Sequence record: MK373784.1
From: Escherichia phage vB_EcoM_MM02
Strand: one strand, 5' to 3'
Length of the DNA stretch: 64,000 nucleotides
In this document: positions 33,176 through 62,230 of the stretch, piece by piece
Position numbering within the stretch: position 1 is the first letter of the stretch
Layout of the letters: the number at the start of each line of letters is the position of its first letter
Notes under the pieces: model-generated
The model's database searches: none
What the model saw: only the letters and a program-made list of their open reading frames with translations
Told to the model about the DNA's origin: nothing
Translations under genes and position numbers: made by a program

Positions 33176-33209
33176 GAGCATTATACTCTGCTCCCAAGAG
33201 TTTGTAAAC
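33176..33209 (-). promoter_or_regulatory. early promoter cassette, family A (TATAAT inside GAGCA/TGCTC inverted repeat)
   Basis: Near-identical to cassette at 61422-61456. Confidence 0.5.
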
Positions 33210-33433
33210 TATTTTACTAAAGATTCAATATACTCATGAAGAGCTTTAGTCGCTACTGCCCACTTGTTTTGGTATTCATTTTTCAGATTAGCACGAGACT
33301 GAACTAACAAGCGGTCATTAGTCGGAGGCAAAGATTCTAATCGTTGAATCTGGCGTCCATAAATCATAGCCGCCATTTCAGATTCATAGATAAGCCCTTT
33401 AAGGTACTCGTGTTGTTCTTTAGTCATTGACAT
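33209..33433 (-). CDS. hypothetical protein, 74 aa
   Basis: ATG ORF downstream of spanin pair. Confidence 0.45.
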   Translation of the reverse strand: MSMTKEQHEYLKGLIYESEMAAMIYGRQIQRLESLPPTNDRLLVQSRANLKNEYQNKWAVATKALHEYIESLVK

Positions 33434-33714
33434 TTTTCCTCTTTTAAACCACTACGATAATAACATAACATAGTCTTCTGGTCATGTACATATCTTTTTA
33501 CGTCGTTTAACCAGATACGAAATTCTTGAGAGTCTTCAAATGGCATTCCAACCCACGGATTACCATCAATAACCTTTACTTGCCATTTCTGGTTGTATTC
33601 GGAAATAGGCGTAGGCCATGAAGGATGTAAAGTTTCTTTAGGGCTTACTGGCACATCCTGAGTACATCCAACTAGGAGACCAATAGATAATACAGCCACA
33701 GTTAATTTAATCAT
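33424..33714 (-). CDS. outer-membrane spanin (o-spanin) lipoprotein, pseT.2-like
   Basis: 96 aa; signal peptide with lipobox LLVGC; directly downstream of i-spanin candidate. Confidence 0.6.
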   Translation of the reverse strand: MIKLTVAVLSIGLLVGCTQDVPVSPKETLHPSWPTPISEYNQKWQVKVIDGNPWVGMPFEDSQEFRIWLNDVKRYVHDQKTMLCYYRSGLKEEKCQ

Positions 33715-34067
33715 TCTGAGAGCTTCCTGAGGTCTTCTGCAAAGGAATCGAAGGACCTGTTGATTTGTTTTTCGACCAATCCTGGCTTACTTGCCACCAC
33801 GTTCTTCTTCTTCGAATCCTGACGGAGCTTTTCATTTTCAGCCTTAAGTTGGTCAACTAAAACACGGTTCTTATAAGTCATTTCTTCGATTGACTGATAT
33901 TGAATCTTGAAGTCGTCTAATACTTTAGCATTGTTTTTAGCAGTCTCTTTAACAGAAGCCAATTCAGTATTCAGCGAATCGACTTTATGGTTCAGAAATG
34001 CTATTGTTACAGTAGCAACAACTGCAAAAGCTGCCACTACAATATATGATGCATTTACTTTAAGCAT
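33711..34067 (-). CDS. inner-membrane spanin (i-spanin), pseT.3-like
   Basis: 118 aa; N-terminal TM helix (IVVAAFAVVATVTIAFL) then coiled-coil region. Confidence 0.6.
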   Translation of the reverse strand: MLKVNASYIVVAAFAVVATVTIAFLNHKVDSLNTELASVKETAKNNAKVLDDFKIQYQSIEEMTYKNRVLVDQLKAENEKLRQDSKKKNVVASKPGLVEKQINRSFDSFAEDLRKLSE

Positions 34068-34555
34068 GTTTGAATAATCTCAATGATTTCGTCTCGGGAT
34101 AATCCATTGATAAGAACTGTTTTAGGCCCGTCAGTTTGGATTTTGTATGATTCAAACAATACACACAACTCTTCTGCTGTATGATATGGACTTGAAATTC
34201 CGAGACGGTTGAATTTGTCGGTAAGAGGGTCGCAAATAATGTAGAATTTTATACCTGCGATATGTACGTTTGGTTGACTAATGTTAATGAACACATTAGC
34301 GTCATATTTAGTCAAATTGTTTTGAAGAAATTCTACCATGGCATTAACTGCTTCCGGCATCGCTTCGCGTTTCTCTTCAGCGTATCGGGTTGAATACTCT
34401 TTTTGTTTTACTTTCTTTTTAAGATTTTTGGCCAGTGTAACACGGAGGTCAGTAAGATAACCAACTGGACGGCCTTTCTTAAAGACTCGGATTCCGTCAG
34501 TTGTGTCTCCAAAAGCGGTTACGACCATATCATTAGTAATCAATTGCATATTCAT
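34055..34555 (-). CDS. alc: Alc-like protein (transcription inhibitor on cytosine DNA)
   Basis: Position between spanins and rnlA; trimmed to ATG 34553-34555 with SD GAGGAG gives 166 aa; ORF-track start 34618 lies inside the promoter. Confidence 0.55.
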   Translation of the reverse strand: MNMQLITNDMVVTAFGDTTDGIRVFKKGRPVGYLTDLRVTLAKNLKKKVKQKEYSTRYAEEKREAMPEAVNAMVEFLQNNLTKYDANVFINISQPNVHIAGIKFYIICDPLTDKFNRLGISSPYHTAEELCVLFESYKIQTDGPKTVLINGLSRDEIIEIIQTCLK

Positions 34556-34585
34556 AATTTTCTCCTCGTGTTGTTGATAAAAGCC

Positions 34586-34615
34586 ATAGTAACACCATCC
34601 TTGGTGTTTGTAAAC
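34586..34615 (-). promoter_or_regulatory. early promoter upstream of alc
   Basis: GTTTAC -35 at 34610-34615; -10 TACTAT. Confidence 0.45.
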
Positions 34616-34617
34616 CA

Positions 34618-35742
34618 TTAATATCCTTCAGGGATGAAATTTTTATGATTTTTAATAAAGACTGATTCTAGAGCAGTCATCATTTGCTCTTTTGAACCAC
34701 CTTGGTAAAGATTCATAATGATGCCAAATAACCAAGGCGTCTGTGCACCCTTACAAACAGCCTGAGCTTCTATAGCATACGTTTTACGATCTTTTCCTTT
34801 GTGCTTGTCATATGTATCTAGACAGATATAAAATGAGCGGTCTAAGAAATCAAGATATGCTTTTTCGAAGAGCTCGACCTTTTTAAATGAAAACTCATCA
34901 TCTGCGTACATCGCTTTAAGGTCATCTGAAGCACCGTTCACTATAGCAAGAAACAACTTTTCTGGGCTAGAGATTGAGTCTCGAGTCGTATGAAGAGCAA
35001 CATACCAATCAGTCTTCAATTTGAAATGAGACCCGTCTTTCATTACGGCTACATACCCTTCAATATTTGTAGAAGACTTGACATCTGAGGCCCAGTCGCC
35101 TTCTGGTACTTCAAATCGATCTACAAGATATTTACGAAAAACAGGGTCTAGATAAATGTCATCATACTCGATGTATTCACCTGTGTTGTTATCACGAATA
35201 TTCAAAAGAATCAATCGTTTTTCAGGGTATGTTAAAACAATTTTATTTGTTGGAGCAACGTATTCGAAGTTAGCAGTGAACCCATCATTACAAAGTTCTA
35301 ACAAACGATCAGCCAAGTTTTTATGGTCGATGTCTAACAAAATACTCGTAGCCGATACAGCCTGGTCGGATTTGATTGACCCTTTAGATTTGAAACGAAC
35401 AATCCCACCATCAAGATATGTCGAGACTAACGAACCATCTTCTTTAGTCATCAGATATTTTACATCATCAAGGTTAATTGACAATGTAAACGGGTTCTCA
35501 TTTAGATTAAAGAATTTTTCCATTGGACGAGAAGCAATACGTACAGGAGTTTCACCATCCATTTCGAACATAATACCACGACACTCTAACGCGTCAGGCA
35601 ATAACCAATCTGAATATGAAGCAAAGTTATATGAGAAAATTCGATACTTTTTACCGATTGGACTTACATCATCCGAGTAGAAAAATTTACGATCAGATGA
35701 CGATTTACACAGAGATAACAGATTATAATAAAGCTTTTCCAT
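34618..35742 (-). CDS. rnlA: RNA ligase 1
   Basis: 374 aa, same length as T4 Rnl1; long identical stretches ([31 protein letters not shown]); KEDGSL adenylation motif. Confidence 0.9.
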
Positions 35743-35797
35743 TTTGTATCCTCAGTTAGTTTTTTTAAATTGTACCACAATCCTTGTGGTATGTAAA

Positions 35798-36208
35798 CTA
35801 CTTTTTCTTATGTTGGATATTCCAAGGCGGGTTGAACTTTTTGATAAAAAGCGGTTCTTCAAGGTCCATTGTTGCGATGGTCATTGAACCAAGTTCGTTG
35901 GTGACTGAAAGGTCAAAACATTGGCGGGCCCAGAATTCAACCTTTTTGCCTTGCATTAAGGCATCCAAAATCATAAGTGATTTTCTTGAATCTGAAGTCT
36001 GGTCTTTTCGATTTATGGCTGTTCGATAATAGTTAATGCGTTTCTTTAAATTCTTGGTTTTACCAATATACACAAGTTCGTCATCTATAGCAATAACATA
36101 TATGACATTTTTCTTATTAGGGACATCAACTGTTTTAATTGTTGCATCTTCTAATAGCTCCAATTCTGTATATTTAATAAAGGAATATTCGGCGGCGATA
36201 TCTTTCAT
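35798..36208 (-). CDS. denA: endonuclease II (GIY-YIG)
   Basis: 136 aa; GIY-YIG-like VIYVIAID...LVYIGKTKNLKKRINYY. Confidence 0.8.
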   Translation of the reverse strand: MKDIAAEYSFIKYTELELLEDATIKTVDVPNKKNVIYVIAIDDELVYIGKTKNLKKRINYYRTAINRKDQTSDSRKSLMILDALMQGKKVEFWARQCFDLSVTNELGSMTIATMDLEEPLFIKKFNPPWNIQHKKK

Positions 36209-61383: not shown

Positions 61384-61421
61384 GCTAATTTCCTCAATTG
61401 ATTAATGTTTTTGTAATCCAT

Positions 61422-61456
61422 GAGAGCATTATACTCTGCTCTCAAGAGTTTGTACA
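61422..61456 (-). promoter_or_regulatory. early promoter cassette, family A, upstream of ndd
   Basis: TATAAT flanked by 7-bp arms GAGAGCA / TGCTCTC. Confidence 0.5.
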
Positions 61457-61459
61457 ATT

Positions 61460-61660
61460 TTATTCGGCTATATCAGAACGTTCAAAAAGCTCTTCAACAG
61501 TTAAACATTCAGTGTCATCTTCAATAAAGAATCGAGTCCAACACGTTGGGGCGATACAGTTATGAGTTTGTCCGGCGATAGAAGCTACACGAATAAGCTG
61601 CTGACCGTTATTCAGAACAAATTTTTCACCAATTTCAACATCTTTAAAAAGCTTAGCCAT
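61460..61660 (-). CDS. hypothetical protein, 66 aa
   Basis: ATG ORF with SD GAGGAA and promoter cassette upstream. Confidence 0.4.
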   Translation of the reverse strand: MAKLFKDVEIGEKFVLNNGQQLIRVASIAGQTHNCIAPTCWTRFFIEDDTECLTVEELFERSDIAE

Positions 61661-61680
61661 TTTGTGTTCCTCATGTTTAA

Positions 61681-61718
61681 GTAGGACTACTATACCATAA
61701 TCCTACCGTGATGTAAAC
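61681..61718 (-). promoter_or_regulatory. early promoter cassette, family B
   Basis: GTTTAC -35; arms GTAGGA / TCCTAC; paralogous to 62194-62230. Confidence 0.45.
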
Positions 61719-61910
61719 AATTAAATTACATTAAAATATGTTAAAGCCAACCATGTTCCAGTGAACGAACATGCGATGTAAAACCACGCATCACAAATTG
61801 TTCTTAGTACAATAAGAAGTGCATTTTTCATAAGTACCTCAACACAATTGAAAATATTATACAAATCATTGGGATACTAAGCAACCATATTCCTATCCAC
61901 ATTTTAGAGC

Positions 61911-62174
61911 TCATATCTCAACTTCCGCGAGTTCCATATATCCTTTGTTGATAACCTCTTTAAGGTCTTTAGAAAGAATAACACCAAAATGGTCGTTCAT
62001 ATGTCCGTTAACTAAACGAGTTATTTCGGCTTCAGATGACATATAAGGCACGTCCGAGTCCCAGTGAGATAGGCCTAAATGGGTATAAATCATCCCTTCG
62101 TCATCTGCAGTGTTGTACATTGAAACAAATTCGCCTGTTACTTTATGTTTTGCGTAGAAAAATTTAAATTTCAT
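61911..62174 (-). CDS. hypothetical protein, 87 aa
   Basis: ATG 62172-62174, SD AGAGGA, promoter cassette upstream. Confidence 0.45.
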   Translation of the reverse strand: MKFKFFYAKHKVTGEFVSMYNTADDEGMIYTHLGLSHWDSDVPYMSSEAEITRLVNGHMNDHFGVILSKDLKEVINKGYMELAEVEI

Positions 62175-62193
62175 GATGTTATCCTCTTTTAGA

Positions 62194-62230
62194 TAGGACT
62201 ACTATATCATAGTCCTACTTAGTTGTAAAC
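62194..62230 (-). promoter_or_regulatory. early promoter cassette, family B
   Basis: GTTTAC -35 at 62225-62230; 8-bp arms TAGGACTA / TAGTCCTA. Confidence 0.45.

Follow-up and report, generated by a model that had tools for sequence, protein, structure and literature searches.

Early promoters and stem-loops of the window

The DNA analyzed here is a stretch of 64,000 nucleotides from Escherichia phage vB_EcoM_MM02 (sequence record MK373784.1; hereafter, the window). In its 58-63 kb segment, which shows 97-99% identity with many Mosigvirus (RB69-like) coliphages, the minus strand codes for rIIB, denB, ndd, gene 52, and motA. Along the window, 18 curated T4-type early promoters are found, all of them on the minus strand and of the form GTTTAC-N17/18-(TGn)TAnnnT, and a stem-loop accompanies 13 of the 18: seven hairpins span the -10 box, two lie in the spacer (promoters 35774 and 34591), and four are separate structures upstream (59126, 58804, 42493, and 27474). 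With a probability of roughly 0.8, we consider that these elements are sigma-70-dependent early promoters of an RB69-like T4-type phage, built as promoter-early-stem-loop (PeSL) cassettes.

A position weight matrix (PWM) made from the 18 curated sites, with a cut-off of at least 16, gives 19 matches on the minus strand (the 18 sites themselves and one at 7567), none on the plus strand, and 0.7 in shuffled sequences. The additional match (7538-7567, GTTTAC-N18-TACTAT, PWM 21.6) is apparently intragenic, with no close Shine-Dalgarno (SD) sequence or ATG downstream. The extended -10 motif TGn is present in 15 of the 18 promoters. Each early -10 is followed by a leader, which in the cassettes is of a conserved ATCAAC type, an SD sequence, and an ATG at 24-44 nt from the -10, and the genes downstream include motA and ndd. 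Judged by sequence, all the traits of T4-type early promoters are thus found (GTTTAC, TGn, TAnnnT, location 5' of early-gene orthologues, early strand), as are those of the strong promoter of a PeSL (-35 and -10 boxes at 17 ± 1 nt, AT-rich DNA upstream). Moreover, once one 322-nt unit is taken out, the spacing of five window promoters reproduces that of the published RB69 early-promoter predictions Pe:165795, 165283, 165022, 162713, and 160217 (Nolan 2006, PMC1524935, Additional file 3). An earlier, sequence-only reading had placed promoter cassettes between 33176 and 62230; all those it named exist and lie on the minus strand, but the phenomenon is wider than that range, with promoters at 4720, 20112, 25943, 27030, 27474, and 31057. 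The promoters, their stem-loops, and the open reading frame (ORF) enclosed by one pair of cassettes are the following.

62201-62230, minus strand: promoter 62206, family B copy 1, GTTTAC 62230-62225, TG, TATAGT 62206-62201, PWM 25.6; by spacing, RB69 Pe:165795; target, 87-aa ORF with ATG at 62174
62194-62217, minus strand: hairpin spanning the -10 of 62206, TAGGACTA/TAGTCCTA, 8 perfect pairs, or 10 when folded as RNA; -13.2 kcal/mol, z -3.0
61689-61718, minus strand: promoter 61694, family B copy 2, GTTTAC, TATAGT 61694-61689; by spacing, RB69 Pe:165283; target, 66-aa ORF with ATG at 61660
61680-61707, minus strand: hairpin spanning the -10 of 61694, 11 pairs including 2 G.U, -13.7 kcal/mol, z -3.5
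61428-61457, minus strand: promoter 61433, family A, 5' of ndd (ATG 61383), degenerate -35 TTGTAC, TATAAT 61433-61428, PWM 17.0; by spacing, RB69 Pe:165022
61421-61444, minus strand: hairpin spanning the -10 of 61433, TGAGAGCA/TGCTCTCA, 8 perfect pairs, -13.5 kcal/mol, z -3.7
59176-59191, minus strand: separate stem-loop upstream in the second family C cassette (C2), GGGAGC-TTCG-GCTCCC followed by a U-rich tail, -14.1 kcal/mol
59121-59149, minus strand: promoter 59126, family C copy 2, on the gene 52 side, GTTTAC-N17-TATTAT, PWM 29.4; by spacing, RB69 Pe:162713; target, 71-aa ORF with ATG at 59081
58866-59081, minus strand: 71-aa ORF, PHROG 6200, function unknown, enclosed between the two family C cassettes
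58836-58856, minus strand: stem-loop upstream of promoter 58804, GGGCTTTT-ggaaa-AAGAGCCC, 8 nt before the -35, no U-tract, -10.9 kcal/mol, z -2.4
58799-58827, minus strand: promoter 58804, family C copy 1, GTTTAC-N17-TATTAT; drives motA (ATG 58761)
56302-56331, minus strand: early promoter, GTTTAC-N18-TACTAT, no stem-loop, upstream ORF extending into the promoter; by spacing, RB69 Pe:160217
45786-45815, minus strand: promoter 45791, GTTTAC-N18-TACTAT, no stem-loop, 12-nt indel at the -35 edge in relatives
42488-42516, minus strand: promoter 42493, GTTTAC-N17-TAGTAT; its stem-loop is a separate terminator hairpin upstream, at 42548-42565 (GGGAGAC-TTCG-GTCTCCC)
42037-42066, minus strand: promoter 42042, GTGTAC-N18-TATAGT
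42028-42055, minus strand: hairpin spanning the -10 of 42042, GATAGGGTTAT/GTAGCCCTATC, 11 pairs including G.U, -16.3 kcal/mol, z -6.2
35769-35798, minus strand: promoter 35774, GTTTAC-N18-TACAAT, with an in-spacer hairpin at 35773-35791 (ACCACAAggaTTGTGGT), -8.3 kcal/mol, z -3.1
34586-34615, minus strand: promoter 34591, GTTTAC-N18-TACTAT, with an in-spacer hairpin at 34591-34608, -8.0 kcal/mol, z -3.0
33180-33209, minus strand: promoter 33185, family A, GTTTAC-N18-TATAAT, the stop codon of the upstream ORF overlapping the -35
33173-33196, minus strand: hairpin spanning the -10 of 33185, GGGAGCA/TGCTCTC, one G.U, -10.8 kcal/mol
31052-31081, minus strand: promoter 31057, GTTTAC-N18-TACTAT
31042-31071, minus strand: hairpin spanning the -10 of 31057, TGGTAGAGTT/AACTCTACCA, 10 perfect pairs, -17.2 kcal/mol, z -6.2
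27469-27497, minus strand: promoter 27474, GTTTAC-N17-TACTAT; its stem-loop is a separate terminator hairpin upstream, at 27534-27551 (GGGAGAC-TTCG-GTCTCCC)
27025-27053, minus strand: promoter 27030, GTTTAC-N17-TATTAT
27012-27046, minus strand: hairpin spanning the -10 of 27030, TTGGTACAGGT/ACCTGTACCAA, 11 perfect pairs, -17.9 kcal/mol, z -4.8
25938-25968, minus strand: promoter 25943, GTGTAC-N19-TATAAT, no stem-loop, at one edge of the gene-replacement module 25913-26576
20107-20136, minus strand: promoter 20112, GTTTAC-N18-TACTAT
4715-4744, minus strand: promoter 4720, GTTTAC-N18-TACTAT, no stem-loop

Non-random pairing and its conservation

The stable stem-loop of a PeSL, which may occupy one of five positions relative to the promoter, is present at the 13 promoters mentioned above. 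Folded as RNA, the hairpins spanning the -10 reach between -10.8 and -17.9 kcal/mol (z from -2.7 to -6.2). Their arms are perfect at 27012-27046 (11 bp), 31042-31071 (10 bp), and 61421-61444 and 62194-62217 (8 bp each), and G.U pairs are included at promoters 61694, 42042, and 33185. The perfect inverted repeats of 6-8 bp that had been proposed around the -10 are therefore real, although the example given for them at 27014-27044 is actually the 11-bp perfect repeat at 27012-27046. A bulged dyad suspected at promoter 20112 is unsupported (z 0.03), and an Rfam search of the window found no family.

In the window, the spacer of each promoter pairs with its own flank after the -10 in a mean best stem of 5.56, against 4.05 when the pairs are swapped (0/20,000 permutations). 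For a wider comparison, other T4-like phages supplied 80 loci in the surroundings of gene 52 and cd, to which three Mosigvirus relatives were added. Of the 119 non-redundant promoters from outside Mosigvirus, 37% can pair their own spacer with downstream sequence in a perfect stem of 7 bp or more, compared with 6.8% for swapped pairs (0/5,000 permutations), and the window promoters analyzed alongside this set give 5.68 for their own flanks and 4.44 for swapped ones.

The promoter upstream of ndd retains its dyad while its arms change: in three lineages the arms are GAGAGCA/TGCTCTC, GAGGACA/TGTCCTC, and CGAGAATC/GGTTCTCG. In its alignment, 93% of the cells are paired, versus 33-66% in slid controls, and three pairs are altered on both sides. 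Across 22 ortholog groups, 135 of the 269 cells changed on both sides are paired, compared with 190 of 523 in the slid controls. Also, within Mosigvirus, the orthologues of promoter 33185 include haplotypes with A-U, G.U, and G-C. These comparisons show that promoter pairing is non-random, persists in orthologues whose arms have changed, and is found again in other T4-like lineages.

Hairpin position follows gene packing

In the window, all the promoters with a nested hairpin have the end of the upstream stop codon at -1 to +12 nt from the -35, whereas in the four cases of separate stem-loops the upstream gene ends 22-118 nt from it. The stop codon just upstream and the SD sequence and start codon at the 3' end that complete a PeSL are thus found here as well. 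The same relation appears in a set of 140 promoters, where nested stems occur at 43 of 90 short-gap junctions and 8 of 50 long-gap junctions (p = 2e-4), and separate stem-loops at 3 of 90 and 23 of 50, respectively. Moreover, a promoter with one form tends to lack the other (odds ratio 0.21-0.26 for nested against separate stem-loops). A position set by gene packing, together with this negative association, indicates that the nested and the separate forms are one element, and a hairpin whose position tracks the upstream stop codon argues against a role in promoter mechanics. This argues that the stem-loop element belongs to the end of the upstream transcription or translation unit, as the authors of the PeSL concept proposed. 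This packing rule for hairpin position is new here, as are the gene-specific anti-SD spacers of relatives described below.

Three of the four separate upstream stem-loops have a U-tract and look like intrinsic terminators. The one at 59176-59191 is predicted to end transcription after gene 52 as an intrinsic terminator, and it also supplies the C2 cassette with its stem-loop. Near-identical terminator hairpins with a UUCG tetraloop (GGGAGAC-TTCG-GTCTCCC and variants) are recurrent in the window, on the plus strand at 4387-4404 and 50874-50891 and on the minus strand at 42548-42565, 27534-27551, 59176-59191, 26595-26610, and 63044-63059, and some of them are palindromic enough for action on both strands.

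Three families of paired cassettes

An unbiased repeat search found that the largest dispersed repeat families of the window are promoter cassettes. Family A pairs 33174-33213 with 61422-61461 (40 nt, 90% identical, longest perfect block 20 nt) and family B pairs 61676-61735 with 62188-62247 (60 nt, 77% identical, 13 nt). Family C has a core at 58782-58836 and 59104-59158 (55 nt, 89% identical) and a repeat of the SD and start-codon region at 58753-58789 and 59073-59109 (84% identical), so that the whole unit, 58753-58836 against 59073-59158, aligns over 86 nt with 87% identity, including a perfect block of 37 nt that spans the spacer through codon 3 (ATGTCTAAA).

The null distribution of similarity between promoters was obtained by shuffling alignment columns, with family-wise thresholds of 0.745 (95%) and 0.787 (99%). 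Only three pairs exceed the 95% threshold: 59126/58804 (0.89), 61433/33185 (0.83), and 62206/61694 (0.79); a wider comparison of 79 columns was too diluted by indels to be useful. The three families recognized in the sequence-only reading are therefore more alike than their shared consensus explains. The relatives that it assigned to family C, at 42488, 27469, and 4716, are real promoters (42493, 27474, and 4720), but by the column-shuffle null their likeness to C is no more than the consensus predicts, and their membership is not supported.

In families A and B, the arms are perfect in one copy of each pair. In family A, TATAAT lies within perfect 8-bp arms at 61421-61444, of the GAGAGCA/TGCTCTC type that had been proposed, while the copy at 33185 is imperfect (GGGAGCA/TGCTCTC, with one G.T). 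Likewise, in family B the arms are perfect over 8 bp at 62194-62217, while the copy at 61694 has only 6 perfect pairs, or 11 allowing G.U. Family C has no dyad at the -10, and its stem-loop sits upstream of the -35. A check for conversion in family A within Mosigvirus shows the ndd copy to be invariant and the other copy to vary independently.

Gene gain and loss at the cassettes

At the family C locus, the window has a cassette, the 71-aa ORF, and a second cassette. Two loci of the comparison set (L001 and L027), and RB69 by spacing, have instead a single chimeric cassette in which the terminator, promoter, and leader of the gene 52 side are joined straight to motA. The segment with the 71-aa ORF is present, at an identity of at least 95%, in 76 phage records, versus 153 for the adjacent motA. 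It is a presence/absence polymorphism of Mosigvirus (∼50% of sequenced isolates have it, and the others, like RB69, have the one chimeric cassette), and both states of the locus, one cassette or two with the ORF, are also found in a second genus. The genomes compared show that an exchange between the two C cassettes takes out or brings in the 71-aa ORF and leaves one chimeric cassette. The similarity of the cassettes offers short patches of homology to the phage recombination system, and the 86-nt repeat of family C is, on the evidence of these junctions, the probable recombination substrate.

A second ORF bounded by two cassettes is present in phage LF82-7, where an extra 120-aa ORF and a second promoter cassette follow promoter 42042. 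This ORF (MKIGKTYIINPE..., L040:34972) resembles a paralogue of the window gene at 42458 (MEIGKSYI...), which is driven by promoter 42493. This likeness suggests tandem cassette-bounded paralogues at a hyperplastic spot. In both cases, the enclosed ORFs code for small proteins whose function is unknown. A replacement with a cassette at one edge only is seen in the module at 25913-26576, where the 204-aa ORF and its trailing promoter are swapped in PTK and NHEP10 for an unrelated 95-aa ORF; one edge is at promoter 25943, and a terminator hairpin and an SD sequence mark the upstream edge. The 95-aa ORF ends in a stop codon that shares letters with the following start codon (TAATG), and no promoter is present.

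The comparison of flanking ORFs with related phages thus bears out a link between cassettes and variable genes at the C pair and in LF82-7, where small ORFs are gained or lost between close relatives as in PeSLs. The modular shuffling for which the sequence-only reading had likened these cassettes to PeSLs is seen directly at family C, but it does not extend to the other two: the segment enclosed by pair B is fixed, and the copies of pair A lie 28 kb apart, so they cannot serve as a flanking pair.

These data provide a base-level case of cassette-mediated gene gain and loss that is ∼50% polymorphic and recurrent in a second genus. For annotation, the cassettes mark probable boundaries of exchangeable accessory genes, and for engineering, they mark sites prone to deletion through short-homology recombination.

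Relation to PeSLs and to known early promoters

As defined by Arbiol et al. 2010 (PMC2839356), a PeSL comprises an upstream stop codon in an AT-rich region, the -35 and -10 boxes, a stem-loop, an SD sequence, and an ATG; its commonest subclasses have the stem-loop overlapping the -10 or between the -35 and -10, and its analogues in T-even-type phages have weaker, AT-rich stem-loops of variable sequence. The resemblance to PeSLs that had been noted before agrees with this definition in the composite order and the stem-loop positions, and with the gain and loss of an ORF at family C. In both the PeSLs of RB49/phi1 (PMC2839356) and the window, the stem-loop is mostly between the -35 and -10 or over the -10, G-T pairs are tolerated, the cassettes precede small ORFs of unknown function, and cassette pairs flank ORFs variably present in close relatives. 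They differ in the promoter, which is of the T4 type (GTTTAC) in the window and near-perfect TTGACA in RB49/phi1, and in the stems, AT-rich and variable in the former and of the GGGG...CCCC type in the latter.

PeSLs were extended to T4/PST and KVP40/nt-1 by Comeau et al. 2014 (PMC4122927). The T-even PeSLs of PST and T4 (the same paper; IP-locus elements, Repoila et al. 1994) and those of the window share TTTACW-N17-TAYWAT and weak, variable stem-loops (AGNA-loop-TCNT in PST/T4; for example AGGA...TCCT in the window), and the ndd/denB region is also named as a shuffling site in T4/PST (PMC4122927). The genus differs, being Mosigvirus here, and, according to the 2014 figure legend, the PST stem-loops lie just upstream of the promoter, whereas those of the window are mostly nested. 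On the basis of that legend the -10 dyads could be taken as something other than PeSLs, a view that the 2010 definition overturns.

The early promoters of T4 and RB69 (PMC1524935; Hinton 2010, PMC2988021) are the same elements, with a UP-like A-tract, GTTTAC, TGn, and the -10. Nolan et al. 2006 (PMC1524935) and Hinton 2010 (PMC2988021) give no more than a linear consensus, with dyads and hairpins unmentioned. Our literature searches found no paper linking PeSLs to RB69 and, outside the PeSL papers, no prior description of dyads at T4/RB69 early promoters. The PeSL concept is extended here to the RB69/Mosigvirus group, home of many therapeutic-candidate coliphages, and with statistics absent from the original descriptions, namely pairing against swapped controls, covariation, and a rule relating hairpin position to gene packing. 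In addition, the separate stem-loops at 59176-59191, 42548-42565, and 27534-27551 resemble intrinsic (Rho-independent) terminators in their GC-rich stem, UUCG loop, and U-rich tail, whereas the nested hairpins have no U-tract.

Several observations weigh against the PeSL reading. Five of the 18 early promoters have no stem-loop, and all nine nested hairpins lack a U-tract, which makes efficient intrinsic termination unlikely. In the 152 records with the pair B segment, no presence/absence polymorphism was found. Cassettes flank an indel on both sides in only two cases; the other differences consist of an inserted homing endonuclease, a changed tandem repeat, small indels, and tail-fiber divergence, and breakpoints are expected near gene boundaries in any case. 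In the 22 ortholog groups, many orthologues have lost or shifted the helix, which implies a fast helix turnover. The promoter clusters are not fully independent, owing to deep paralogy. Mismatches show no strand bias (G.T 5 vs A.C 4 in the strict non-redundant count), which is compatible with a role at the RNA or at the DNA level; a sense-strand G.T bias, considered as a sign of RNA structure from a loose count of 11 vs 2, is gone in the strict one. Finally, the start sites are those predicted from promoter geometry, and any function of the hairpins is putative.

Possible roles of the hairpins

Each cassette is built in the order of an upstream stop codon within an A/T-rich stretch, GTTTAC, 17-18 nt, TGnTAnnnT, the ATCAAC-type leader, the SD sequence, and the ATG. 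From sigma-70 geometry, the start site is expected 7 nt after the -10, and the 5' arm of the hairpin would then always lie upstream of the start; in that case, the hairpin cannot form in the transcript of its own promoter. Only read-through RNA of upstream origin, or single-stranded DNA, could form a nested hairpin. The hairpin would most likely serve as proposed for PeSL stem-loops, to mark or insulate upstream transcription at its 3' boundary, via attenuation or 3'-end protection, and 3'-end protection or insulation would be as possible as attenuation.

A more specific proposal, with the odds against it, is that the nested hairpin may be a post-stop-codon RNA element positioned by gene packing, anti-SD in some cases, so that translation would depend on the promoter from which a transcript comes. 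In T4-like phages, when the gene upstream of an early promoter ends at the -35, a helix anchored in the spacer is present in about half of the cases, and in roughly 1 in 8 promoters this helix pairs with the SD sequence in a gene-specific way. If this is true, RNA from the own promoter would be open and read-through RNA masked, the principle of genes e, soc, and 49 would be extended from late to early promoters, and PeSL stem-loops would gain a post-transcriptional role instead of a terminator role.

Among the alternatives to a function at the 3' boundary, the dyads could be mutational by-products without function, generated by quasi-palindrome (template-switch) correction or by conversion from arm to arm. 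Templated mutation at quasi-palindromes of T4 is reportedly well documented, in Ripley's work, and the rapid helix turnover, the frequent register shifts, and the mismatches without strand bias would fit such a process. Nonetheless, the window has no general excess of inverted repeats with arms of 8 bp or more (48 vs 36.8 ± 7.5), yet four of the 48 span an early -10, although promoter cores amount to only ∼1.4% of the sequence. Also, the occurrence of the hairpins depends on the position of the upstream stop codon, unforeseen by a pure mutation process, the 5' arm is always in the spacer, and haplotypes pass through G.U intermediates, all of which makes this origin unlikely.

Quite improbable, too, is that the hairpins act as DNA, in single strands or as cruciforms, aiding promoter opening or serving as targets of recombination proteins, in which case the cassettes would be active recombination sites and not passive homology. 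The authors of the PeSL concept speculated that the stem-loop is such a target, and one mini-circle crossover was mapped to the loop; moreover, an inverted repeat is symmetric on both strands, in agreement with mismatches that favor neither. Against this, the arms of different cassettes have unrelated sequences, the place of the upstream stop codon would be of no consequence to promoter mechanics or a recombinase, the junction of family C may be anywhere within the 86-nt homology, and that family, where exchange is seen, has no nested dyad.

In T4, translational control by a promoter inside a hairpin is established for the late promoters of e, soc, 49, and I-TevI (PMC3014915), and the window hairpins might similarly mask the downstream ribosome-binding site (RBS) on read-through RNA, so that only transcripts of the own promoter would be translated. 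The two systems are alike in having the promoter in the 5' half of an RNA hairpin that only longer upstream transcripts can fold; in the T4 genes, SD and AUG are sequestered, whereas the window hairpins leave the SD free and some early promoters of relatives sequester it. In relatives, 16 of 125 promoters have a helix of 9 bp or more that pairs the spacer with the SD in a gene-specific way, versus 0.37% of swapped pairs, but the best such stem in the window has 5 bp, the predicted accessibility of the SD in read-through RNA is not below that of controls with shuffled upstream sequence, and the 3' arms end approximately at the start site, 7-25 nt before the SD. RBS masking by the hairpins of the window is rejected on these grounds as very improbable. 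In other T4-like lineages, early-promoter spacers with a gene-specific anti-SD arm are of the type GTTTACaTCTCCATTTGGTTgtgtTACTAT...AACCAAATGGAGAaacaaaATG, with examples at L065:5570, L062:4222, L003:8416, L071:5254, L047:4896, and others.

Finally, that the dyads are operators for a dimeric repressor shutting off the early promoters is effectively refuted, because, although dyad symmetry centered on the -10 is typical of operators and early shut-off is incompletely understood (PMC3014915), the arms are wholly different between promoters and co-vary, no half-site is shared (as the sequence-only reading had anticipated from the differing arms), complementarity between swapped flanks is at background, and half of the promoters have no dyad.

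Other differences from close relatives

At the -35 edge of promoter 45791 (window 45815), 12 nt are inserted in all three relatives (PTK, LF82-7, and NHEP10). LF82-7 has a homing-endonuclease gene of 644 nt between nrdB and nrdA (L040:29177-29818), absent from the window at 37414-37475, and PTK has an insertion of 672 nt in the gene 59/gene 33 region (window 44245; L039:36318-36990). Within a gene at 16019-16128, the window contains a perfect tandem duplication of 55 nt; PTK, LF82-7, and NHEP10 are 51 nt shorter at this place, and the duplication is therefore a copy-number polymorphism. Families of imperfect direct repeats of 44-48 nt, presumably repeats at the protein level, are present at 47201-48132 in the proximal long-tail-fiber gene.

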